This document shows positions 1-60,209 of a DNA stretch of 64,000 nt, in pieces (the stretch's first letter is position 1; every line of letters begins with the position of its first letter). This stretch comes from an uncultured Clostridium sp. (GTDB lineage Bacteria; Bacillota; Clostridia; TANB77; CAG-508). A program made the translations under genes and the position numbers. The stretch lies in assembly GCA_900552135.1 (NCBI GenBank), contig URYN01000003.1, forward strand, positions 24,594 through 88,593, in the 5' to 3' direction. The notes under the pieces are model-generated. The model was not told where the DNA came from. It did no database searches and saw only the letters and a list, made by a program, of their open reading frames with translations.

Positions 1-1179
1 CAAGAGGAGCTACCCATTGTAAGAGAAAACACAACTAAAAGAGAAAATACTGTAAAAGAAAACATTTCTATTGTTGATGAACCAGCAGAAAATGAAAATT
101 TACCAGAACTAAAAAATAAAGGTGAAATTGCAAAAACAAGGTCAGTATATACAGATGCAAATGGAGCAAAAGCAGTTGTGCCAGAAGGCTATGGAGTTGT
201 TTCTGATGCAGGAACAATAGCTGATGGACTTGTTATATCAGATGTTGCTGAAGATGATTTAGATAACACAAAGCAAGGAAATCAATTTGTATGGATTCCT
301 GTAGAGTTGCCAAGTGTAGACTTCAGCAAATATACAAATGAAGATGATATAAACGAAAGACTATCAGAATTAATTCAAAGCAAACAATATCCAATGGCAA
401 TGAAAATGGCTGATGGAAATTATAAAGGAATTTTGTATAGATTTGAATCGGTAAATGAGAATACAGAAATTAGAGTAAGTTTCATTTCTTACACAAATGG
501 AAATTCTGAGAGAGAACCGGCTAATTTGCAAGATAATGCAAGTCTAGTAGAAAATTGGACTAGTGAGCAATATCAAAAAGATTACAATGCTTTGGTAAAC
601 AGAGTAAAAAATGACAAAGGTTTTTGGATTGCAAGATACGAAACAAGTGTTGATGAAACAGGCAAAGCCCAATCAAAGAAAAATCAAAATGTAACAACAG
701 GAATATCATGGTATAAAATGTACAACTACGAAAAAACATTACAAAATAGAAAAACAACAAGTAACATGGTATGGGGAAGCCAATGGGATCAAGTAATGAT
801 ATGGCTAAAAAACGTAAGAAATTATAATACAAAAGATAGACAATATTATATAGTAAACAGTTCAAACATGGGAAATTATTTAAATACAGAAATAAAGGAA
901 GAAAGAGCAAATAGAATTGAAACAGTAAAAAAGAGTGGAGAAGCTGTAAGATATAAATCTGGAACAGTAAAACAAGCCCTTGTAAGAAATATATATGATA
1001 TGGCAGGTAATGTATGGGAATGGACGATGGAAGCAAATTTCACATCTTCTAGAACAGTAAGAGGAGGAGATTGTTCTTATGATGGCGTAACATATCCAGT
1101 TACAGCAAGATTCTCATTCCAGGCAGATTATTCAGGAGAAAAAATAGAAAACATTGGTTCAAGAATGACTATATACTAA
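1..1179 (+). CDS. Surface protein with C-terminal FGE/SUMF1-like (C-type-lectin fold) domain; 5' end lies outside the window
   Basis: Frame 1 is open from base 1, with no stop before the GTG listed at 178. Shares VPxGY..GLVISD..GNQFVWIPVE and NIYDMAGNVWEWT..RGG motifs with the CDSs at 52403 and 58702. Confidence 0.7.
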   Translation, partial: QEELPIVRENTTKRENTVKENISIVDEPAENENLPELKNKGEIAKTRSVYTDANGAKAVVPEGYGVVSDAGTIADGLVISDVAEDDLDNTKQGNQFVWIPVELPSVDFSKYTNEDDINERLSELIQSKQYPMAMKMADGNYKGILYRFESVNENTEIRVSFISYTNGNSEREPANLQDNASLVENWTSEQYQKDYNALVNRVKNDKGFWIARYETSVDETGKAQSKKNQNVTTGISWYKMYNYEKTLQNRKTTSNMVWGSQWDQVMIWLKNVRNYNTKDRQYYIVNSSNMGNYLNTEIKEERANRIETVKKSGEAVRYKSGTVKQALVRNIYDMAGNVWEWTMEANFTSSRTVRGGDCSYDGVTYPVTARFSFQADYSGEKIENIGSRMTIY

Positions 1180-2846: not shown

Positions 2847-3584
2847 TTAATATATCAACATATAAAGCGTATCATCATCAAATATTATTTGTTCTTCAGA
2901 AAACTCTTCGTAATCTATATTTTTAAATTTTTCGATTATTTTTGCAGGCATTCCAACTTGTTTTAAGTTCTTATTGCAATAATAATTTACTGCTTGTCGA
3001 ATACACCATGAACAGGCAAATTTTCTTTCTGTTAATGATTGCATTGGTCTTATTCCAACGGCATACTGCTGTGGACTTTTATCGTATTTAAACGAGAATT
3101 TTGTGATAGTTTTTCCAGTTTCTGATTCGTATTTATTTAACAAGTAACTTATGGTTTTTCCAGTGTTTCCATCTACTCTATTGGCGGCTATATGTTCTGT
3201 TATATTTTGCATAATGAAAATACTATTTATTATGCAAGAGATAATCGTAAAAGTATAAATTATATTATTTATTTTTCCTTTTGGAGAAATACTTGCTTGT
3301 GCTAATAATATAATTATAGAACTACCCCATAACATCATTAATGGAACATTTACTCTTCCACATACTCCAGTATTAAATATAAACATTGGTACTATACAGA
3401 TTGATAAAGTTATAAATACAATTAATAAATATTGCATAATATATTCTTTTTTCATTTTTGAAATTATTAGTAATATAAAACTTAAAATTAATACTATTGT
3501 GTTTGTGTGTTTTGGCAACATTGCCATACATTCATTCCAAAGTTCATTTAAATATCCGCCAACTGTTTTACCCCTTAGTAGTAT
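2847..3584 (-). pseudogene. 5'-truncated polytopic membrane protein resembling the C-terminal half of GtrII-type glucosyltransferase-domain proteins
   Basis: Multi-TM sequence ending in a YAVGIRPMQSLTERKFACSWCIRQAVNYYC-type tail. The listed N-terminus (3585..3650) is just the reverse translation of the pilin-module fragment, so the real gene is cut at about 3585. Confidence 0.4.
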
Positions 3585-3691
3585 TGCTAATACTAGCAGG
3601 AGTAAGTATAAACTTAGTGCTAAACAATAATGGAGTAATAAGTAAGGCAAAAGATGCGAAAAACTCTAATGAAGAAGCAAAAACAAAATAA
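3585..3691 (+). pseudogene. Orphan fragment of the pseudopilin-like N-terminal module
   Basis: About 80 nt nearly identical to 1393..1475 (VVLLILAGVSI.LVLNNNGVISKAKDAKNS). It has no start codon or RBS of its own and stops after about 10 more codons. Confidence 0.6.
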
Positions 3692-3699
3692 ATAGAGCA

Positions 3700-3757
3700 G
3701 GTAGGAAATGGTTTGAACCTAGAGTAAGATAAGGTACAAGTCGTTCATATTTTTTTA
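3700..3757 (+). repeat. Copy 1 (shorter) of the 3' element also found downstream of the CDS ending at 59892
   Basis: ggtaggaaatggtttgaacctagagtaagataaggtacaagtcgtt..catattttttt aligns with 60003..60095. It lacks about 32 nt present in copy 2. Confidence 0.65.
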
Positions 3758-8163: not shown

Positions 8164-9645
8164 ATGGGAGAAAAATTAAAACACATTTTTAAACTAAAAT
8201 ACATGCATATAGCAATAATAATATTGGGAACAATTTTTATAGCATTATCAATATTCCATACCAATATGTGGTTTGATGAGAGTTATACAATAGGAATAGT
8301 AAGACATTCTTTTTCGGAAATATGGAATATAACAAGCTTTGATGTACATCCACCATTTTATTATTTCTGTTTACATATTTTAAATTTACTATTTGGAGAA
8401 AGCATTATATTATATAGATTGTTTTCGGCAATCACAATTGCATTAACGGCATTACTAGGGTACACTCATATTCGTAAAGACTTTGGAGAGAAAACAGGAT
8501 TCTGGTTTTCGTTTTTAATGTTGTTTTTGCCAGTAGCTGCACAATATGCTGGAGAAATAAGAATGTATTCTTTAGGAATGCTTCTTGGAACAATTATGTG
8601 CATATATGGTTATAGGATTTATAAGAAAGATATTCATAAATTGACTTATGTATTTTTCGGACTAAGTAGTTTAGCCCTAGCATATACTCATTATTATGGA
8701 GTTCTATTGGCAGGCGTTATAAACTTGGCTTTATTCATATATTTAATAAAGAATAGAAAAGAAAGAAAACAAGATTTAATAAAGTTTACAATAACAGCAG
8801 TCTTACAGGTTGTAGCATATTTACCATGGCTTATAGTGTTTGTAAGCCACTTAAAGGGAACAGGTTTCTGGATTACATTAACTTTCCCAGGTTCGATATA
8901 TGAAATACTAACAGTACAGTATAAAGGAAATTTAGCTTTTCAACCAATAATACTTTCAACAGCTTTTTATGCTTATTTAATTTACATGGTAAACAAAACA
9001 CCAAAAGAGGAAAGAAAACCTGGAACTTGGGGATTTATCATTTACATAGGAATAATTTTTTTAGTGTTAGTAATTTGTGGATTATTACATAGTGTAATAT
9101 TGCTAAGCAGATATTTATTAATATTGAATGGAGCATTCATGTTTTCTGTTGCGTTCTTCATGGCAAAAGATACAAATAAATGGAGAATTATATCAATTTG
9201 TGTAATAATTCTAACACTTTCAACAATAAGCAATAACAAGACAATCAAAGAGAATTATTCGTCAGGAAATAGAGAGTTTATTGAATATATTGATGCCAAT
9301 ATTCAAAAGGGAGATATAATTTTATACTCAGGTGCAATAAATGGAGCTGTAATAACAACAGAAGTTTCTCATAGCTATGATAATGTTTCTTATTTCTACA
9401 ATAAAGAGCATTGGGGAGTACATGAGGCCTACAAAGCATTTGCACCATATATGGTAATTGAAGAAGATTTATCAAAAATTCTAAATGACTATACGGGAAG
9501 AATTTGGATTGTTGAAAATGAGAACACACATAGTCTTTATGAAGAGGTAGCCGAAAAATATACAGTAAATAAGATTGATGAAAAACAATTTACAGATATG
9601 TATAAGGACTATAAATATACATTTGAACTAGTTGAAAAAGATTAG
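8164..9645 (+). CDS. GT-C fold (family 39/83-like, ArnT/PMT-type) membrane glycosyltransferase
   Basis: About 11 TM segments, a WFDESYT (DE) first-loop motif and HPPFYY, plus a soluble C-terminal domain. Confidence 0.65.
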   Translation: MGEKLKHIFKLKYMHIAIIILGTIFIALSIFHTNMWFDESYTIGIVRHSFSEIWNITSFDVHPPFYYFCLHILNLLFGESIILYRLFSAITIALTALLGYTHIRKDFGEKTGFWFSFLMLFLPVAAQYAGEIRMYSLGMLLGTIMCIYGYRIYKKDIHKLTYVFFGLSSLALAYTHYYGVLLAGVINLALFIYLIKNRKERKQDLIKFTITAVLQVVAYLPWLIVFVSHLKGTGFWITLTFPGSIYEILTVQYKGNLAFQPIILSTAFYAYLIYMVNKTPKEERKPGTWGFIIYIGIIFLVLVICGLLHSVILLSRYLLILNGAFMFSVAFFMAKDTNKWRIISICVIILTLSTISNNKTIKENYSSGNREFIEYIDANIQKGDIILYSGAINGAVITTEVSHSYDNVSYFYNKEHWGVHEAYKAFAPYMVIEEDLSKILNDYTGRIWIVENENTHSLYEEVAEKYTVNKIDEKQFTDMYKDYKYTFELVEKD

Positions 9646-10682: not shown

Positions 10683-11534
10683 TTATTCTATATCTTGTTT
10701 TACTTCTGCATGAGTTTCTAGCAATTCAGGTTTCTTTAAATATTTTGATAATTGCTTGAAGGAGGTTGCGTAATAATAACCATCGCAAATTCTCTCATCA
10801 CCAACGAATGCTAGTGTAATACATTTTTCTTCATGAATTTCGTCATCATCATAAACATAGCTCTTTTTCTTTTTACCCATTGCAAAGAACATACTGGTTG
10901 TTCCAAAGTTATACAAATGGTGATATATGCTATCAATACCAAGGGACCCAACATTTGTTAAGAAAACGCTGGTGTGAAATGGACTTGCTTCGATAATTGA
11001 TTTAGGCATTATTCCATGCTTGTCTAAAAAGGTTAGAAACTTTACAGCCAATCGAATCGCTCCACCAGGAATTAGACTTAATGCTTTTGCTAAATTATCT
11101 GTATTGTTAGTTACAGCATTGTCCTTATTCTTCTCTATGGCTGAGTCCAATTTTTCTTTTATTTCAAATATGTTTTCAGTACCATCAAAAGGTAATTTTA
11201 TAGATGTTTCAGTTCCTTCATCAGAAAAATTCTTTTTGATTACAAGAGAAACATAGATTTTATTTCTTGCATAAAGACTACCATTCATTGCAAACCTGTT
11301 TAAATATGGCCTCTCAGCTATTATTCTTACTATTGCTGCGTAGATAATATTCATATAAGACAAACGAATTCCTTCTTCAGCCTTTTTATCTATGTATGCA
11401 TCTATATTATTTAAAACAATATCTTGCTTAAAATATACCTGTGAATCTTCTCTTTCTGGCATGATACATGGTATAACCTTAAAAAATGTAGGAATAGTTT
11501 TTAATCTCCTACCATCACTTCTTCTTCCGAACAT
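10683..11534 (-). CDS. Standalone 2-oxoacid dehydrogenase acyltransferase (CAT-like) catalytic-domain protein
   Basis: 283 aa with a GDERICDGYY motif resembling the DHRxxDG active-site motif. No lipoyl domain. Confidence 0.5.
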   Translation of the reverse strand: MFGRRSDGRRLKTIPTFFKVIPCIMPEREDSQVYFKQDIVLNNIDAYIDKKAEEGIRLSYMNIIYAAIVRIIAERPYLNRFAMNGSLYARNKIYVSLVIKKNFSDEGTETSIKLPFDGTENIFEIKEKLDSAIEKNKDNAVTNNTDNLAKALSLIPGGAIRLAVKFLTFLDKHGIMPKSIIEASPFHTSVFLTNVGSLGIDSIYHHLYNFGTTSMFFAMGKKKKSYVYDDDEIHEEKCITLAFVGDERICDGYYYATSFKQLSKYLKKPELLETHAEVKQDIE

Positions 11535-11809
11535 TTTATTTTCCCCTTTTATTTAAATTTATGTATAAAACAAATAACCATACATGTCTATTTTACTATT
11601 AGTGTATATTTTTGTCAAATTTAATTGGAATTTTGTGGATTAAAAGTTGAAAAACAAAGAAAAAAAAGAAAAAAATACAAAAAGGATGCCGTAATAGAAT
11701 TTGAAAGATAAAAAACCTATAAAATTTAATTGGATAAAAAACGTTGGAATACTTGAATTTCTTGGGTGTTGTGTATATAATATGTATGTTATGATAGGAG
11801 ATAGAGGTT

Positions 11810-12694
11810 ATGTTAGAACAATTAGCTAAATGCGAAATATGTCCTTTTAGATGTAAAGTTAATAGACTGAGTGGTCAGGTTGGAAGATGCGGTTGTGGAG
11901 ATAAAATAAAAGTGGCTAAATATCAGTTACATTATTTTGAGGAGCCATGCATAAGCGGAAAAAGTGGTTCTGGTACAGTGTTCTTTTCAAATTGTAATTT
12001 TAAATGTATTTTTTGTCAAAATTACAAGATTAGTCAAGAGGGAAAAGGCAATGAAGTTACTATTGAAGAACTTGCAAATATATTTTTAAAACTTCAGCAA
12101 GAAGGTGCAAACAATATAAATCTTGTGACTCCAACAATGTATACTTATCAAATAATAGAAGCTATAAAAATTGCAAGAATAAAGGGATTGAATCTACCTA
12201 TAATATATAATAGCAACGGATACGAAAATGTAGAAACCTTAAGAGATTTGAGAGGATATGTTGATGTATATCTTCCAGATTTAAAATATTATGCTGATGA
12301 ACTTGCTATTAAATATTCAAAAGCGCCTAATTATTTTAAGATTGCAACAAAGGCTATTTTAGAAATGATAAACCAAGTTGGACTAACTGAGTTCGATGAA
12401 AATGGTATGATTAAAAAAGGTGTTATAATAAGGCATTTGGTGTTACCTGGACATATTCAAAATTCCAAGCATATACTAAAATGGCTAAAAGAAAATGTAG
12501 AGGGAAATGCTTATGTAAGTGTTATGGCTCAATATTTTCCAACTTACAAGGCAAAGGAAGATGAGTATTTAAACAGAAAATTGACAAGAAAAGAGTACTC
12601 AGAAATCGAACAGTATTTATATTTGTTAGATATTCAGAATGGATATATGCAGGAACTTGGAAAACATGAGGAAGAGTATGTTCCGGATTTTTAA
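11810..12694 (+). CDS. Radical SAM protein (PflX-like / pyruvate formate-lyase activase-related)
   Basis: CNFKCIFCQN is a CxxxCxxC cluster motif. About 294 aa. A TTGAAT-17-TATAAT promoter lies upstream. Confidence 0.75.
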   Translation: MLEQLAKCEICPFRCKVNRLSGQVGRCGCGDKIKVAKYQLHYFEEPCISGKSGSGTVFFSNCNFKCIFCQNYKISQEGKGNEVTIEELANIFLKLQQEGANNINLVTPTMYTYQIIEAIKIARIKGLNLPIIYNSNGYENVETLRDLRGYVDVYLPDLKYYADELAIKYSKAPNYFKIATKAILEMINQVGLTEFDENGMIKKGVIIRHLVLPGHIQNSKHILKWLKENVEGNAYVSVMAQYFPTYKAKEDEYLNRKLTRKEYSEIEQYLYLLDIQNGYMQELGKHEEEYVPDF

Positions 12695-12800
12695 TTAGTG
12701 TAAAAGTATAGAAAATATGATAATAATAAAAAGTAAAGTTTAAAAATTACACAAATTAATAAAAAATATATAGAGTCTAGAAGAAAAACGGAGGTATAAA

Positions 12801-13526
12801 ATGGCTATTTTTGAACATGAATATAGAGTTGGTTTGTCTGATGTTGGACAATCGAATAAAATTACGAATAAGGCAACATTAAGAATATTAGAAAATATTG
12901 CAGGAATGCATTCAGAAGCGGTTGGATTCGGAATAAATAGTATGGATAAAACAGGAATTAGCTGGATAATTCTTGGTTGGAAGATTAAGATTATCTCAAG
13001 ACCGATATATGATGAAGTATTGGCAGTTAAAACTTGGGCAAGATCATTTAATAGAGCTATTTCATATAGAGACTACGAAGTTTATGATAAGAGTGGTAAT
13101 TTGATGATTATTGCTACAAGTAAATGGGCTGTTATAGATATAAATAGTGGAAGACTTGCTGAAATTACACCTGAAATTATTAATGCTTATAAATGTGAGG
13201 AAAAACATGCTTTGGAAGATAACGATGATATGAAAATGAAAGAGCCTGACGAAAAAGAAAAGACTCTAGAATATACAATAATGAGAAGAGACATTGATAT
13301 AAATAAACATGTTCATAATTTATATTATCTGGATTATGCCAATGAAGCACTTCCCGAAGAAATCTACAAAGATGCTAAGTTTGACAACATAGAAATAATG
13401 TATAAAAAACAAATAAAATTAGGTGACGAGATTAATTGTTATTATTCTAAAGAAGAAGATAAAAACATTATAACAATAAAATCAAAAGATGATAAAATCT
13501 TGCATGCAATAGTAGAACTTTATTAA
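12801..13526 (+). CDS. Acyl-ACP thioesterase family protein
   Basis: Double hot-dog pattern with N-terminal YRVGLSDVG..N..T.LR.LE and later INKHVHNLYYLDYA. Confidence 0.75.
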   Translation: MAIFEHEYRVGLSDVGQSNKITNKATLRILENIAGMHSEAVGFGINSMDKTGISWIILGWKIKIISRPIYDEVLAVKTWARSFNRAISYRDYEVYDKSGNLMIIATSKWAVIDINSGRLAEITPEIINAYKCEEKHALEDNDDMKMKEPDEKEKTLEYTIMRRDIDINKHVHNLYYLDYANEALPEEIYKDAKFDNIEIMYKKQIKLGDEINCYYSKEEDKNIITIKSKDDKILHAIVELY

Positions 13527-45808: not shown

Positions 45809-45905
45809 AATATAAAGATTAAAAAGACAGATAAAGAAATTAAGATAAAAATTTAAATAAAGAAAATTTTAACTTTAGATTTGAAAAAGAATGAAAAATT
45901 TTCAA

Positions 45906-45935
45906 CCAAAAAGGGGCGTCCCTATTGGGCGAAAG
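45906..45935 (+). repeat. GC-rich palindromic repeat, copy B (lacks the 5' arm)
   Basis: ccaaaaaggggcgtccctattgggcga is a 27-nt perfect match to the reverse complement of copy A. It abuts the tpiA RBS. Confidence 0.75.
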
Positions 45936-51131: not shown

Positions 51132-52187
51132 ATGAAGAAAACCTTATATGTTGACATATGCTATGATAAAAAAGAATATAAAACAAGAAAAAAAGAAGAA
51201 AAATCAGATACAATTTTGCAATTTATAAATATTAGCAAATCAAGAAAGATAAAGATAAAACCAAAACTAAAACAGAAAGAAAAGGAAGATAATTCAGAAA
51301 GAGAAGAACATATAAACTTAAAAAAGAACATAAAAAAACTAAATAGAAAAATTGAAAAAAGAATTAGAAAAATAAAAAAATGTGCTCTAAGAGTAAATGT
51401 TAAAATAGTGCCTTCAAATGAAGTAATAAAAATAGTAAAGAAGTTAGAGGCAATAGAAAAAAATAAGAAAATAAAAGAAACAGAAAAAAATAAGAAAATA
51501 AAAGAAGTAGATAAAATAAAGGAAATAGAAAAAATAAAGAGAATAAGCGAGCAAAATCTTGAAGAGAAAAAATTAAAGATACATACTTTTGATATTAACA
51601 ATTTAGTAAATGAAATAGAACAAAGCAAAAATATATATTGTGAAAATTCGATAGAAATACTTAATAATATAATGAAAGACGGGAAAAAAGAAACAAAAGA
51701 ACAGAGTGTTTATATACTATTAGAACAAAGCTCTAATTTAAACAACATAAAAATAAAAGAGATGCTTAATCAATATAAAATAGTGTATATAATAACAGAC
51801 AATGTAAAACAATATAGAAAAATAGAACAATTTGCAGATGAGGAAGCAGAAATGCTTATTATATTAAATAACAGAAAAAAAAGCCTGTCAAAAGCAAAAT
51901 ATATAATCAATTATGACTTTAGACAAGAAAATATAGAAAAGTTTAATATAAACAGAACTGCAACTATTTTGAATGTTGCACAGAATAAAATAAAGATATA
52001 TCAAGGATTCCAAGGAATAGTTATAAACAATATAAGACTAAAAAGTGAAAAAGATGAAAAATTTCCTATAGAATACGAGATAGAAAAAAATAGAGAAAAA
52101 GTAAATAAAAAGATAAAAAATGAGGAATATTATTTAATTGGAGAAAATGGAGAAATTAATAAAGAGGAAATAATAAAACTGCAATAG
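51132..52187 (+). CDS. Lys/Glu/Ile-rich hypothetical protein with an internal tandem repeat
   Basis: 351 aa with a repeated EKNKKIKE unit. The C-terminal half is less biased. No recognisable domain. Confidence 0.4.
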   Translation: MKKTLYVDICYDKKEYKTRKKEEKSDTILQFINISKSRKIKIKPKLKQKEKEDNSEREEHINLKKNIKKLNRKIEKRIRKIKKCALRVNVKIVPSNEVIKIVKKLEAIEKNKKIKETEKNKKIKEVDKIKEIEKIKRISEQNLEEKKLKIHTFDINNLVNEIEQSKNIYCENSIEILNNIMKDGKKETKEQSVYILLEQSSNLNNIKIKEMLNQYKIVYIITDNVKQYRKIEQFADEEAEMLIILNNRKKSLSKAKYIINYDFRQENIEKFNINRTATILNVAQNKIKIYQGFQGIVINNIRLKSEKDEKFPIEYEIEKNREKVNKKIKNEEYYLIGENGEINKEEIIKLQ

Positions 52188-52402: not shown

Positions 52403-53710
52403 ATGGATAAAAGAAAATTGAATAATGAAACCGGAATAACAATAATAGCTTTATCAATTACAATAATAGTAATGCTTATATTAGCGGGAATTTCTATAGC
52501 TACAGTAAGTCCGATGATAAAAAATTCTGAAGAAGCAAAACAAGAACAAGACATTGAAACAGAAAAATCAATTGTATCAAGGGCAGCATTTGCAGCTGAA
52601 AAAGTAGGGGTAAAAGGTAGGATTACTAAAGATAATTTACAAAAGATGATGCAAAATGAACTTCCATCTGGCAATTTTACTGTTATAGAAAATGGAGATG
52701 GTTTTACTATTACATTTACAGATTCAAACAGATCATATAATGTTGATGCAACAGGAGGAAATAGTTCAAGCTCTGAAACGATAATTGACGGAGTGACAAT
52801 ACCTGCAGGCTATTATTATGTGGGTGGAACAAAGGCAAAAGGATTAGTAATTTCTGATAATGTAGCAGATAACGAATTAGATAAAGGAAAAGAGGATGTT
52901 AGAGAAGAGTTAAGTGGAAACCAATGGGTATGGGTGCCTGTAGAAACACCAAGTAGTTTATATACAACAGTAGATGCAGGACAGGCTTTAGCAGGAAGTA
53001 CAGGAGTAAAGACTACAAAATATACAAATTCAGCTATAATAAAAGGAAGAGTTAAACCAGGAGATACAAGTAGCTATAGGGAACCAGATTTGGTAATTGG
53101 AAAAGATGGAACTAGTTATGATTATGCAAATTATGCAACAGCAGGATTTACTAGCTTAAAAAATATGGCTGATACTATGGCAAGTGATTATAATGAAATG
53201 ATAAGAAGTCTAGAGAAGTATAAGGGATTTTTTATAGGAAGATATGAGTTAACGGCCGATGGGGAAAAGACAGGAACCACTCAAACGGATAAAAATTGGT
53301 ATGAATTATATAAAAATTGTACTAAATGGGCGAAAGAAGGAACAAAAGTAAAAACAAGAATGATATGGGGCTTGCAGTGGGATGCAACATGTAATTGGTT
53401 AGCAAGCTCTAACTTTGATATAAATGATTCAAGTAAATGGGGAAACTATACAAATAATACTACTAATAATGGAAGAGGAACAAAACAGGAGACAGGATAT
53501 AGTGAAAGTTGGAAGGCAAATAATATATACGACTTTGCTGGAAATTGTCATGAGTTTACGCAAGAAGCAAGTGATTGGGCTAATAGAGTTGGCAGAGGTG
53601 GTTATTATTATACTTATGGATCTGGTGTACCAGCTTCTGGAAAGCAAAGTTCTTTATATTCAAATACACAAGGCTTTGGCACTCGCCCAACTTTATATAT
53701 AATTCCATAA
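52403..53710 (+). CDS. Pseudopilin-like N-terminus plus FGE/C-type-lectin-fold head (paralog without the GC-rich tail)
   Basis: ETGITIIALSITIIVMLILAGISI. IPAGYYYVGGTKAKGLVISD..GNQWVWVPVE. NNIYDFAGNCHEFT..RGG..GFGTRP. Confidence 0.75.
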   Translation: MDKRKLNNETGITIIALSITIIVMLILAGISIATVSPMIKNSEEAKQEQDIETEKSIVSRAAFAAEKVGVKGRITKDNLQKMMQNELPSGNFTVIENGDGFTITFTDSNRSYNVDATGGNSSSSETIIDGVTIPAGYYYVGGTKAKGLVISDNVADNELDKGKEDVREELSGNQWVWVPVETPSSLYTTVDAGQALAGSTGVKTTKYTNSAIIKGRVKPGDTSSYREPDLVIGKDGTSYDYANYATAGFTSLKNMADTMASDYNEMIRSLEKYKGFFIGRYELTADGEKTGTTQTDKNWYELYKNCTKWAKEGTKVKTRMIWGLQWDATCNWLASSNFDINDSSKWGNYTNNTTNNGRGTKQETGYSESWKANNIYDFAGNCHEFTQEASDWANRVGRGGYYYTYGSGVPASGKQSSLYSNTQGFGTRPTLYIIP

Positions 53711-53805
53711 TGAGCGTTTAATTTTAACTGTGTAAAATCGAGCATATAGGAGAGTATAATCTTAACCGAACACCTACAAACCTGTTGGAATATCTTTCCA
53801 ACCTC

Positions 53806-56096: not shown

Positions 56097-56195
56097 AATA
56101 AATTTGAATTTAGAGGAAAAGTTTCAAAAAATAAGGGCAGACTATTTTTTATGTAACAGCCCAAAAATTGAAATAAAAAAAGCTATGAAGAAATC

Positions 56196-56229
56196 TCGCC
56201 CAAAAAGGGGCGTCCCTAATGGGCGAAAA
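56196..56229 (+). repeat. GC-rich palindromic repeat, copy C
   Basis: tcgcccaaaaaggggcgtccctaatgggcgaaaa differs by one nucleotide from the copy A/B core. It lies 19 nt before the rarA ATG. Confidence 0.75.
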
Positions 56230-58590: not shown

Positions 58591-58701
58591 GTGAGAATGA
58601 AAATATTTCAGATGAAATCAAAAATAAATGAAAAACAGTTGAAAATAAAAATTTGTAATGGTAGAATAAACAAAGAAAAATACAAAGGAGGAAAAAAGAA
58701 A

Positions 58702-59892
58702 ATGAACAATAAATCAAAAAATAAACAAGAAAAAGGAATTACGCTTATTGCTTTGGTTGTAACTATTATAATAATGCTAATATTAGCAGGGGTTAGCATT
58801 AAACTTGCAATAGATAATAATGGTGTAATAGAAAATGCTAAAGAAGCAAAAGACCAGTATGAGCAGGCACAAGCTAATGACGAAAGTGGATTGGAAGATT
58901 TGGCTTCGAAACTGAAAGAACAAATAGATGCAAATAAAAACAATAATTCAGGTTCAGGAAGTTCTGAAAGTACAGTAGATGGAGTGCCAATCCCAGCAGG
59001 ATTTGTATATGTAGGAGGAACAAAAGCAAGTGGTCTAGTAATTTCAGATAATGCAGCAGACAAAGAAAAATATAAAGGACAAACAACAGTAGGAATAGAT
59101 TTAGTAGGAAACCAATTTGTATGGATACCAGTAGAAAATATAGCAGATTATAAAAGAACTGCTTATTCAACACAAGTTGCAACAGGAACAACAGATACAA
59201 CAACAAATTCAGAGCAAATAAAATACAGTAGCTCAGATAGTGATTACTTTAAAGAAGCATTGCCTGCAGACGAAAAGACAAGTGTAGAAACCAATAAGGG
59301 ATTCTATATTGGAAGATACGAAGCAGGAGACCAAGAAAGTACAGACTCTAAAAAATTAAGAGCAAGCGGAGCACCAACAAGTAATACAATAACAGTAAAA
59401 GCAGGACAAGCCCCATATAATTATGTAACAAGAACACAGGCTAAAAGCCTAGCAGAAGGATTTAGTACAAAACAAAAATATACAAGTGTAAAATCAAAAC
59501 TAGTAAGTAGCTATGCATGGGATACTGCAATTGCATTCATACAAAAAACGAATAGTGATTATGGAAGTAGTTCAGAAGAAGGAAATTATCAAGATTCTCC
59601 AACATTTACTTATACAGGAATAGCAGATACAGAAAAAAATAAACAAACCAAAGAAAATGGAACAAGTACATTAATTCCAACAGGACAAACCACAGCCGTA
59701 AATAACATATACGATATGGGAGGAAATGTATGGGAGTGGACTACAGAGTCTTTTTCTTACACGCGCACTCCGTACACGGGTCGTGGAGGCCGTTACAGCG
59801 GCTACTTCGCTAATTATCCAGCTGGTGGCCGTAGTAGCGGTTCCGACGGTGCCCGCGGTGACTGTGGGTTCAGGCTTACTTTATTCTTGTAG
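58702..59892 (+). CDS. Pseudopilin-like N-terminus plus FGE/C-type-lectin-fold head; candidate DGR variable protein
   Basis: ATG at 58702 follows aaaggagg. KGITLIALVVTIIIMLILAGVSI. IPAGFVYVGGTKASGLVISD..GNQFVWIPVE. NNIYDMGGNVWEWT..GRGG..GFRL. Confidence 0.8.
   Translation: MNNKSKNKQEKGITLIALVVTIIIMLILAGVSIKLAIDNNGVIENAKEAKDQYEQAQANDESGLEDLASKLKEQIDANKNNNSGSGSSESTVDGVPIPAGFVYVGGTKASGLVISDNAADKEKYKGQTTVGIDLVGNQFVWIPVENIADYKRTAYSTQVATGTTDTTTNSEQIKYSSSDSDYFKEALPADEKTSVETNKGFYIGRYEAGDQESTDSKKLRASGAPTSNTITVKAGQAPYNYVTRTQAKSLAEGFSTKQKYTSVKSKLVSSYAWDTAIAFIQKTNSDYGSSSEEGNYQDSPTFTYTGIADTEKNKQTKENGTSTLIPTGQTTAVNNIYDMGGNVWEWTTESFSYTRTPYTGRGGRYSGYFANYPAGGRSSGSDGARGDCGFRLTLFL
59757..59880 (+). other. Candidate DGR variable region (VR) at the 3' end of the CDS
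   Basis: By hand count 59761-59880 is 74/120 G+C and 18/120 A, set in AT-rich DNA. The in-frame codons are mostly NNC (cgc tac ggc tac agc ggc tac ttc ggc agc tcc gac gcc cgc gac). Confidence 0.55.
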
Positions 59893-60002
59893 ACCTGAGC
59901 CCTGGTTTCTCTGAATATTAATTCAGCAGGAATCATAACCCATAGTATAGATATGGGAAAAGGAATCTCAAATTTGAGAATTAACATAAATATAAGAGAG
60001 TA

Positions 60003-60095
60003 GGTAGGAAACGAGTTGAACCTAGCGTAGCTAAGGTACAAGTCGTTTCTACCGGACTAAAGTGGTGTGCAGATTTTGTACATCATATTTTTTTC
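60003..60095 (+). repeat. Copy 2 (longer) of the 3' element; 51-nt imperfect hairpin at 60003-60053 followed by a small terminator-like hairpin and T-run
   Basis: About 22 bp are paired by hand (ggtaggaaacga..tcgtttctacc outside, ttgaacctagc-gta-gctaaggtacaa inside). Aligns with 3700..3757. Confidence 0.65.
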
Positions 60096-60209
60096 AAATT
60101 ATTGTTATAGTAAATTGGAAACTAACCAGAGATTGTTTATATATGGTAAGATTTCAAAAAAGTGTTATAGTAAAAGAAATATGCCAATATTGATTACATT
60201 GAAAATTTT

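Follow-up and report, generated by a model that had tools for sequence, protein, structure and literature searches.

The prototype of the diversity-generating retroelements (DGRs) is the Mtd/Brt/Avd system of the Bordetella phage BPP-1. DGRs that contain a MutS-like (MSL) protein, including that of Legionella pneumophila, form 'Architecture D' of Wu et al. 2018 (PMC5758913), and targets that are non-adjacent to or remote from their retroelement have been described in the same work, seven such remote targets being recorded for the system of Treponema denticola TvpA, a variable protein with an FGE-type C-type lectin (CLec) fold (PMC5758913). DGRs with Msl and Avd accessories diversify the tip adhesins of type V pili in Bacteroides (bioRxiv 10.1101/2024.11.15.621889), and a 'GspG-type pilin' domain on DGR targets receives a single mention in a survey (PMC11661182). 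No paper on type IV pilin-like DGR targets was found in a literature search. The locus described here lies in a stretch of 64,000 nucleotides (nt), called the window below, from an uncultured Clostridium sp. (assembly GCA_900552135.1, contig URYN01000003.1, positions 24,594 to 88,593 of the forward strand), and coordinates are those of the window unless another contig is named. The gene at 58702..59892 (+) carries at its 3' end, at 59746..59880 (+), a block that is very probably a genuine DGR variable region (VR) whose retroelement core in cis has been deleted.

The 3' end of this gene is set apart from its surroundings by composition. The 120 nt at 59761-59880 contain 74 G+C (0.617) and 15 % A and are the top-ranked stretch of this length in the window, which has an overall G+C of 0.305; only one other region exceeds 0.50 G+C, near 22.3 kb, within a ribosomal protein gene. 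An earlier note, made from the letters of the sequence, had described this patch as having about 62 % G+C and about 15 % A, had listed its NNC and NNT codons, and had read it as a candidate VR; the composition was confirmed and the codon list is correct codon by codon. The extent given there was 59757-59892. The block actually shared by the VR and its template repeat (TR) is 135 nt long (codons 349-393); its start lies about 10 nt earlier, and it stops 12 nt short of the final base of the stop codon.

The cognate TR was found on a human-gut metagenome contig (L098; here and below, L numbers denote contigs and loci and P numbers proteins), where it adjoins a reverse transcriptase (RT) gene. Over the 135 nt, the TR and the VR differ at 30 positions (59746-59864), every one of which is an adenine in the TR (30 of its 50 adenines), and all 85 non-adenine positions are identical. 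The chance that all 30 mismatches would fall on the 50 adenines is about 5e-17. The substitutions from TR to VR comprise 20 A>G, 6 A>T and 4 A>C. The TR contains 18 AAY codons and has 41 % G+C and 37 % A, and the template form of the block reads AAGTCTTATTCTAACACGAACAATCC...GGGTTCAGGCTTACT, with the adenines kept. The higher G+C of the VR (62 %, against about 41 % for the template) is accounted for by these substitutions, 24 of the 30 having put G or C in place of A. A sister TR, on contig L116, differs from the VR at 31 adenine sites and at 4 other positions. A near-copy with adenine-only mismatches beside an RT, for which a search had been proposed in the earlier note, was thus found in the TR of L098, which comes from another metagenome and not from the window's own genome.

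Variability among homologues follows the adenines of the template. A protein search returned 7931 homologues of the target, whose exact sequence has no entry of its own on record, and all entropy figures refer to an alignment of the best 120 of these, which are 75-89 % identical to it. Mean column entropy was 3.0 bits (range 2.39-3.55) at the 18 AAY template codons, compared with 0.52 bits at the remaining 27 TR codons (Spearman rho 0.81) and 0.44 bits over residues 1-343. Discrete columns within residues 351-388 reach about 3 bits, and the segments between the variable columns (RGG, FA, PAG, R and GFRLTLFL) are invariant, so that the confinement of variability to adenine-templated codons that had been expected of a VR was found. 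The residues at the variable columns (S, Y, G, N, D, V, I, L, F, R, T, C, H and A) are those of the NNY codon set, within which 99.2 % of the residues at the AAY columns fall. Some pairs of homologues have identical bodies and VRs with 17-24 differences. Two genes of one assembly, at equal coverage (L125 and L126), have 0 differences over 1045 nt of the body, and their VRs are separated by 25 differences, of which 23 fall on TR adenines. The entropy pattern, taken together with the pairs of identical body and different VR, reads as the signature of DGR diversification.

Two further observations concern the extent and the integrity of VRs in this family. Codon 344 (59731-59733, the W of GNVWEW) is variable among the homologues (N, L, Y, F, S, C, G, D or A; 2.0 bits) and occurs in NNT form (AAT, GAT, TAT, TTT) in L008, L012, L013 and L106, yet it lies upstream of every recovered TR start; given this variability, a longer TR is probably present in some lineages, although none was recovered. 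The cassette-adjacent target of L116-L122 has a VR (about 8825-8950) with indels relative to its own TR, namely a 6-nt loss and a 9-nt duplication of codons derived from AAT-AAC-AAT. The same indel-bearing VR is present in all seven contigs of this widespread strain, and the indels suggest template slippage or decay.

By analogy with established DGR biology, the A-rich TR with its 18 AAY codons would be transcribed, the transcript would be reverse transcribed with misincorporation opposite the template adenines, and the resulting cDNA would replace the 3' end of the gene, turning AAY into NNY codons with the accompanying rise in G+C. A sharp G+C spike with NNC and NNT codons at the 3' end of a gene for a lectin-fold protein can identify a VR even where no retroelement is present.

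Retroelement cassettes adjoin orthologues of the target in relatives, in the order target, structured spacer of about 170 nt, MSL, Avd, RT, TR and a short SSB-like gene (L034, L087-L115 and L116-L123). Two other contigs, L006 and L007, contain the target, a 154-amino-acid (aa) MutS-domain-I protein and bAvd before the contig ends. On L034, a contig of a GTDB metagenome-assembled genome (MAG), the end of the target is followed by the spacer, two copies of CCTACCGGACTAGTCC, MSL (PF01624), bAvd (PF22296), a 337-aa RT (PF00078) with YMDD and GNYTSQ motifs, and an A-rich TR 150 nt downstream. L098 contains the end of Avd, a 339-aa RT with the RVT_1 fold and YMDD and GNYTSQ motifs, the TR about 230 nt after the RT, and a small open reading frame (ORF). 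The NCBIfam DGR Avd model scores 69 bits on the cassette Avd, below its cutoff of 80. The cassettes of the relatives therefore combine a small MutS-domain-I accessory protein and Avd, without HRDC (PF01624, PF22296 and PF00078). A scan of metagenome contigs with a degenerate TR pattern gave 29 loci, all from the human gut, and the 96 %-identical RT P0121 is present on 28 contigs, including a 269-kb Hadza contig on which an intact element (target, MSL, Avd, RT, TR, SSB-like gene) lies between glmS and uvrC and the TR has 4 non-adenine mismatches to the VR. Whichever of the two cassette families is considered, the SSB-family ORF (66-79 aa, PF00436, E = 8.6e-8) invariably comes after the TR, at more than 30 loci (for example at 5-244 on the minus strand of L098 and at 11549-11749 on L116). 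Its product is 60-100 % identical across the cassette families, and it may be a fifth DGR component.

The element is cellular and not of phage origin; IMG/VR, scanned with the Avd, the TR pattern and the RT, yielded nothing closely related, the nearest RTs being only 29-30 % identical. The hosts are uncultured gut Clostridia and probably Christensenellales, the label given by NCBI to the source of one homologue. Because the target gene is 87 % identical at the nucleotide level between the window and L125 while neighbouring housekeeping genes are 68-74 % identical (L125 and L008 compared with window 10751-13526 and 58672-60010), horizontal spread of the target and its cassette among gut Clostridia is suggested. 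The cassette upstream in L125 and L008 has lost the catalytic core of the RT through an internal deletion and is inactivated. Two hybrid contigs were also encountered: in L114 the 5' flank of a VR runs into the 3' flank of a TR, and in L117 a Band_7 flank of the window type is joined, at the 5' end of the target, to the target and cassette of the glmS/uvrC locus. Each is either a true product of recombination or a chimera assembled across shared repeats.

The window contains the target without such a cassette. No RT, Avd, MutS-like gene or TR copy was detected in the 64 kb by repeat finding, motif scan or tblastn with MSL, Avd and RT, in agreement with the absence of a retroelement reported in the earlier note. 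Repeat finding and low-stringency blastn of the VR within the window hit only the GNVWEW region of a paralog, and scans of the window with Rfam (gathering thresholds) and for tRNA and tmRNA found no RNA genes. A 70-nt fragment on L050, 100 % identical to 59680-59752, was considered as a TR start and rejected, since it stands isolated beside uvrB without an RT.

The alignment of the window with the cassette-bearing loci runs to ...CCTACCGGACTA, stops at 60059 and resumes at 60100, which corresponds to position 11700 of L116 in the 3' end of the SSB-like gene. Because homology stops at the one point and resumes inside the SSB-like gene at the other, 2.57 kb comprising MSL, Avd, RT, TR and most of the SSB-like gene are, judged from this alignment, cleanly deleted in the window. 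The right edge of the deleted core is formed by a stump of the SSB-like gene (60100..60205, +), which represents its last ~100 nt and is 88 % identical to L116 11699-11807 and 83.5 % identical to L098; tblastn with the 66-aa SSB-like ORF matched 60094-60147 (E = 7.5e-8). The junction itself is occupied by 40 nt of filler (60060..60099, +), a terminator-like hairpin (60062-60086) followed by a T run, which is absent from the cassette-bearing loci and occurs only in the window and in L002-L004 and L124. The same junction is present in those four other assemblies, which belong to the same species as the window because their flanks are 97.7 % identical to it. L001, also of this species, has kept MSL and fragments of Avd and RT at this position, followed by a FokI-type restriction-modification island. 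The 'remote target' of the earlier note was not demonstrated, and what the window bears is the remnant of a cassette that was lost in cis.

The invariant 3' end of the TR/VR homology, GGGTTCAGGCTTACT (59866..59880, +), encodes GFRLT and marks the place where an element like the initiation of mutagenic homing (IMH) sequence would lie. It is identical in the VR and the TR of L098, and the GFRLT residues are invariant among the homologues. Past 59880 the homology ends, the VR continuing with TTATTCTTGTAG and the TR with CTAATACAATTT. A GC-only run at 59848-59861 had been likened to an IMH in the earlier note and is instead a stretch of the VR that was itself mutated; its counterpart in the TR is AATGCCAACGATAA, and only the mutation of six template adenines has made the run GC-rich. 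No IMH/IMH* pair was recognisable at the VR, where the 15-nt invariant end is followed by conserved hairpins. The two hairpins that had completed the IMH-plus-hairpin reading, at 59911-59926 and 59939-59957, do exist, and it is the IMH part of that reading that was wrong.

These hairpins belong to a conserved structured spacer (59893..60059, +) that begins after the stop codon and ends inside the repeat CCTACCGGACTA(GTCC). It contains two more, at 59966-59979 and, as a terminal hairpin of 51 nt, at 60003-60053. The RNA fold of the spacer has a z-score of -6.5 relative to shuffled sequences, and the spacer is near-invariant across loci whose coding regions are 84-95 % identical. The terminal hairpin (also present at 349-403 of L034 and in others) has 20 pairs, 8 of them with compensatory changes between the two cassette families, and immediately precedes the palindromic repeat CCTACC-GGACTAGTCC, of which there are two copies and within which the edge of the deletion falls. 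Possible roles for this hairpin are recognition, termination and RNA stability. A requirement for the spacer is not obvious, since L126 has a clean, adenine-only VR without it.

The target gene is preceded by an AGGAGG ribosome-binding site and encodes 396 aa, which form, from the N-terminus to the C-terminus, a prepilin-like leader, a low-complexity linker, a conserved body and an FGE-sulfatase/CLec-type domain. The motifs GNVWEWT, RGG and GFR reported in the earlier note are all present, and the C-type lectin fold proposed there for the C-terminus agrees with a Pfam FGE-sulfatase match above the gathering score (28.3 bits, cutoff 23.3), which spans only positions 111-206 of the profile. The PDB profile of pFGE (1y4j) was matched across GNVWEW...GFR with E = 0.0014. 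The name given by NCBI to the homologues, 'SUMF1/EgtB/PvdO family nonheme iron enzyme', follows from the shared fold and is misleading. DGR variable proteins of the FGE fold are binding proteins and not enzymes. From the C-terminal ligand-binding CLec/FGE domain and the N-terminal prepilin-like leader or membrane anchor, the target is therefore most likely a surface-displayed, diversifiable binding protein.

The leader and its hydrophobic helix (58702..58800, +) read MNNKSKNKQEKG|ITLIALVVTIIIMLILAGVSI. The pseudopilin anchor proposed in the earlier note is consistent with the cleavage context KG|ITLIALVV, in which Gly at -1 and the hydrophobic helix fit a class III signal peptide, but position +5 is Ala and not Glu, the Pfam N_methyl match (E = 0.0021, 18 bits) is below the cutoff of 21.2, and NCBIfam made no pilin call on the target. 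Weak matches of the leader to PDB profiles were obtained for the MshA pilin (E = 0.39) and geopilin (E = 0.67), and the homologue P0102 is named 'pseudopilin PulG' by JGI. A Pfam scan of 30 window proteins, of which 22 do not belong to the pilin-like gene family, revealed no pilus machinery; the scanned proteins are housekeeping proteins (PNPase, ribosomal proteins, SecY, glycolysis, SpoVT, RecD2 and others) or have no assignment. The prepilin-like character of the leader is thus weakly supported by these profiles. Loss of Glu5 is typical of tip-located minor pilins, and a tip adhesin would be an attractive reading of the target. Modular type IV pilins with a lectin or adhesin module, for example PilB and PilC of Streptococcus sanguinis, have a canonical leader and are encoded in pil operons. 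The target resembles them in its layout, with a large globular binding module placed behind a short class III-like leader and its hydrophobic helix, and differs from them in the missing Glu5, the sub-threshold profile scores and the absence of pilus machinery from the 64 kb.

The assignment of 59746-59880 as a VR that lost its cis core has to be set against several points that weigh against it. The cognate TR stems from another sample and not from the genome of the window. The fold of the target is assigned from sequence profiles, and an AlphaFold2 model built on a 76-sequence alignment of low diversity (pLDDT 51.6) is too poor to define a variable surface. The VR has not drifted at the 85 non-adenine positions and its frame is intact, which is equally compatible with a young fossil and with rewriting that is recent or still under way. 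A lineage with a cis cassette also has stable VR haplotypes, the P0018 cluster comprising 8 gene bodies and one VR. If the abrupt shift in composition is taken alone, it would also permit an origin other than a DGR, such as a horizontally acquired GC-rich patch, gene conversion from a GC-rich relative or a chance fluctuation in composition. That explanation is effectively refuted and has a negligible probability, as all 30 template differences lie on adenines, the variability of the homologues tracks the AAY codons of the template exactly, and the same framework adjoins RT, Avd and TR in dozens of loci; the VR proposed in the earlier note is upheld by the adenine-only mismatches to a cognate template, by hypervariability confined to AAY codons and by full cassettes beside orthologues in relatives. 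The missing cassette might also have been lost in assembly, by collapse of the TR/VR repeat and omission of the intervening 2.6 kb, and many contigs do break at or near the VR or TR and the hybrid contigs L114 and L117 exist. Such an artefact is very improbable, because the junction lies not at the TR/VR repeat but 180 nt downstream of it, with a unique 40-nt filler and a right edge within the SSB-like gene, and because it recurs in four further independent assemblies.

Accepting a VR with a deleted cis core, the allele would either be frozen now or be rewritten only if another cassette exists outside the window. Continued rewriting in trans, with an intact MSL-Avd-RT-TR cassette acting from another site of the same chromosome (such as one next to a further copy of the target) and the retained 3' elements allowing recognition, is a possibility of about one in three, and both trans action and remote DGR targets are documented (PMC5758913). 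In genomes of this clade, several loci can each carry a VR-bearing target, in some cases without a cassette (L012 and L013 from one MAG, L125 and L126 from one assembly), and the nearly A-site-only divergence of the L125 and L126 VRs on identical bodies, the window VR with 0 of 85 non-adenine changes relative to the TR of L098, and the intact cassette at the glmS/uvrC locus of L116 and L118, to which L117 joins a window-type Band_7 flank, all fit such rewriting. Against it stand the lack of an RT or TR in the 64 kb, the degraded state of the cassette beside L125 itself, the possibility that L117 is an assembly chimera, and the VR haplotype of P0102, which is identical in 36 blocks of the collection (the contigs shown being from different samples) on slightly different bodies. 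The alleles of L124 and L002, the sole same-locus cassette-less pair compared, have 1 difference in 995 nt of the body and were considered as a case of trans diversification at a cassette-less locus; this was rejected, because SNPs on both sides of the VR differ as well and the difference is thus a recombination patch of at least 214 nt.

Alternatively, the VR would have been written in a donor with an L098-type cassette, imported by recombination through the conserved 5' leader and 3' spacer, and now be inert, a reading that carries appreciable weight while falling short of an even chance. In its favour, the target protein is only 77 % identical to the same-locus allele in the strains with 97.7 %-identical flanks, identical VRs occur on bodies differing by up to 84 residues, and gene bodies are block mosaics; the patch between L124 and L002 with its flanking SNPs, the excess identity of the target to L125 over that of its housekeeping neighbours, and the RT deletions beside L125 and L008 point the same way. 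A donor with the exact VR was not found among the homologues, however, the nearest of which (P0001) differs at 22 VR residues, and later rewriting in trans would be compatible with import. The invariance of the P0102 VR across samples was tried as an argument that the allele is frozen because it is orphaned and was discarded; it is no proof of lost activity, because the P0018 cluster with its cis cassette shows the same. The evidence leans slightly towards a frozen or imported allele over one served in trans, and VR alleles would move between strains by homologous recombination. In clusters at 90 % identity (P0018 and P0071) one VR is common to all members while the bodies differ in block mosaics, and the VR haplotypes seem to be stable and shuffled by recombination.

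The mechanism and the class of the element are already established, the MSL and Avd cassette of the relatives being that of Architecture D, and the locus has features in common with several described systems. With Architecture D it shares adenine-only mutagenesis, a VR at the C-terminus of an FGE/CLec-type domain, and, in the relatives, a cassette of a small MutS-domain-I protein, Avd, an RT of about 340 aa and a TR, without HRDC. It differs in the gene order (target, spacer, MSL, Avd, RT, TR), in the window holding the target alone, and in the SSB-family ORF after the TR at more than 30 loci, which is outside the four accessory classes of PMC5758913. The FGE-sulfatase-type CLec fold, the position of the VR after the GNxWEW and RGG motifs, and the scattering of several, mostly cassette-less, targets over a genome recall T. 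denticola TvpA. The Treponema system has an HRDC accessory protein and lipoprotein targets, whereas MSL, Avd, the SSB-like ORF and a prepilin-like leader are found here, and the cassette-less state here arose by a traceable deletion. With BPP-1 the locus has in common A-to-N mutagenic retrohoming into a C-terminal CLec VR and an invariant end of homology followed by hairpin-forming DNA. It lacks a recognisable GC-rich 14-bp IMH and adjacent GC hairpin, its first hairpin lying 31 nt past the end of homology, and the element is cellular and not a phage. The type V pilus DGRs of Bacteroides likewise come from the human gut and have Msl and Avd accessories, and resemble the present system in the idea of a hypervariable lectin head on a pilus-type scaffold, the pilus link here being drawn from sequence. 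Their pilins are of the lipoprotein type, in contrast to the type IV prepilin-like leader of the target, and their hosts are Bacteroidota and not Clostridia (probably Christensenellales). Three features appear modestly new, namely the prepilin-like leader, the SSB-family gene after the TR and the covarying 3' hairpin.

Other loci of the window are related to the target or lie close to it. The two paralogs listed in the earlier note are real and have AT-rich C-termini and no VR: one at 52403..53710 (+) is 41 % identical to the target and intact in the window at 435 aa, and the other at 1..1179 (+) is 34 % identical and cut by the window edge. L001-L004, of the same species, do not have the 1-kb segment that matches window 52746-53786, and the paralog at 52403-53710 is truncated there to 117 aa. 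Just upstream of this paralog, the ORF at 51132-52187 is rich in Lys, Glu and Ile, contains 27-nt tandem repeats (51416-51546) and has no family match. A stump of a second target-type gene was recognised at 3502..3740 (+) on the basis of repeats D1, D10 and D17; in it, an N-terminal fragment of prepilin-like type is joined to the 5' half of the terminal hairpin, and a T-run comes next. At the corresponding position upstream of rpsO, a contig of a related MAG (L013) contains a target of full length that bears a VR, and in the window a 267-aa membrane ORF without family match lies there on the minus strand (2847-3650). The region 1325-2639 encodes a prepilin-like leader and BspA-type leucine-rich repeats (LRR_5), split into overlapping ORFs at 1325-2050 and 1992-2639 as a result of a frameshift or as a pseudogene; the orthologue in L002 (15164-16852) is intact and encodes 562 aa. 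A GC-rich, hairpin-forming intergenic element (…AAAAAGGGGCGTCCCTAATGGGCGAAA) is present in two copies, at 45871-45934 and 56165-56228, with a similar one after uvrB in L050, and is probably a shared terminator or a motif like the repetitive extragenic palindromic (REP) elements.

A more far-reaching picture of the system can be drawn from these parts and is put forward as an unlikely one. Christensenellales-like gut Clostridia would display a DGR-diversified lectin head on a type IV (tip) pilin without Glu5, written by a five-gene retroelement (MSL, Avd, RT, TR and a dedicated short SSB) with a structured 170-nt 3' element accompanying every target copy, and trans retrohoming, together with recombination among loci and among strains, would keep orphaned VR alleles in circulation. 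If true, this would be a two-tier diversification system beyond those described.

The template partner missing from the window could be recovered from public metagenomes, and the decay of such a locus is documented here, through a clean deletion of the cassette and internal deletions of the RT, even as its VR alleles survive and are spread by recombination. Two leads without earlier description are the conserved SSB-like gene behind the TR and the 3' hairpin with its covarying pairs. The findings add an abundant lineage of human-gut Clostridia to the DGR systems that diversify surface binding proteins, and the target may sit on a type IV pilin-like anchor, alongside the type V pilus adhesins recently described in Bacteroides.

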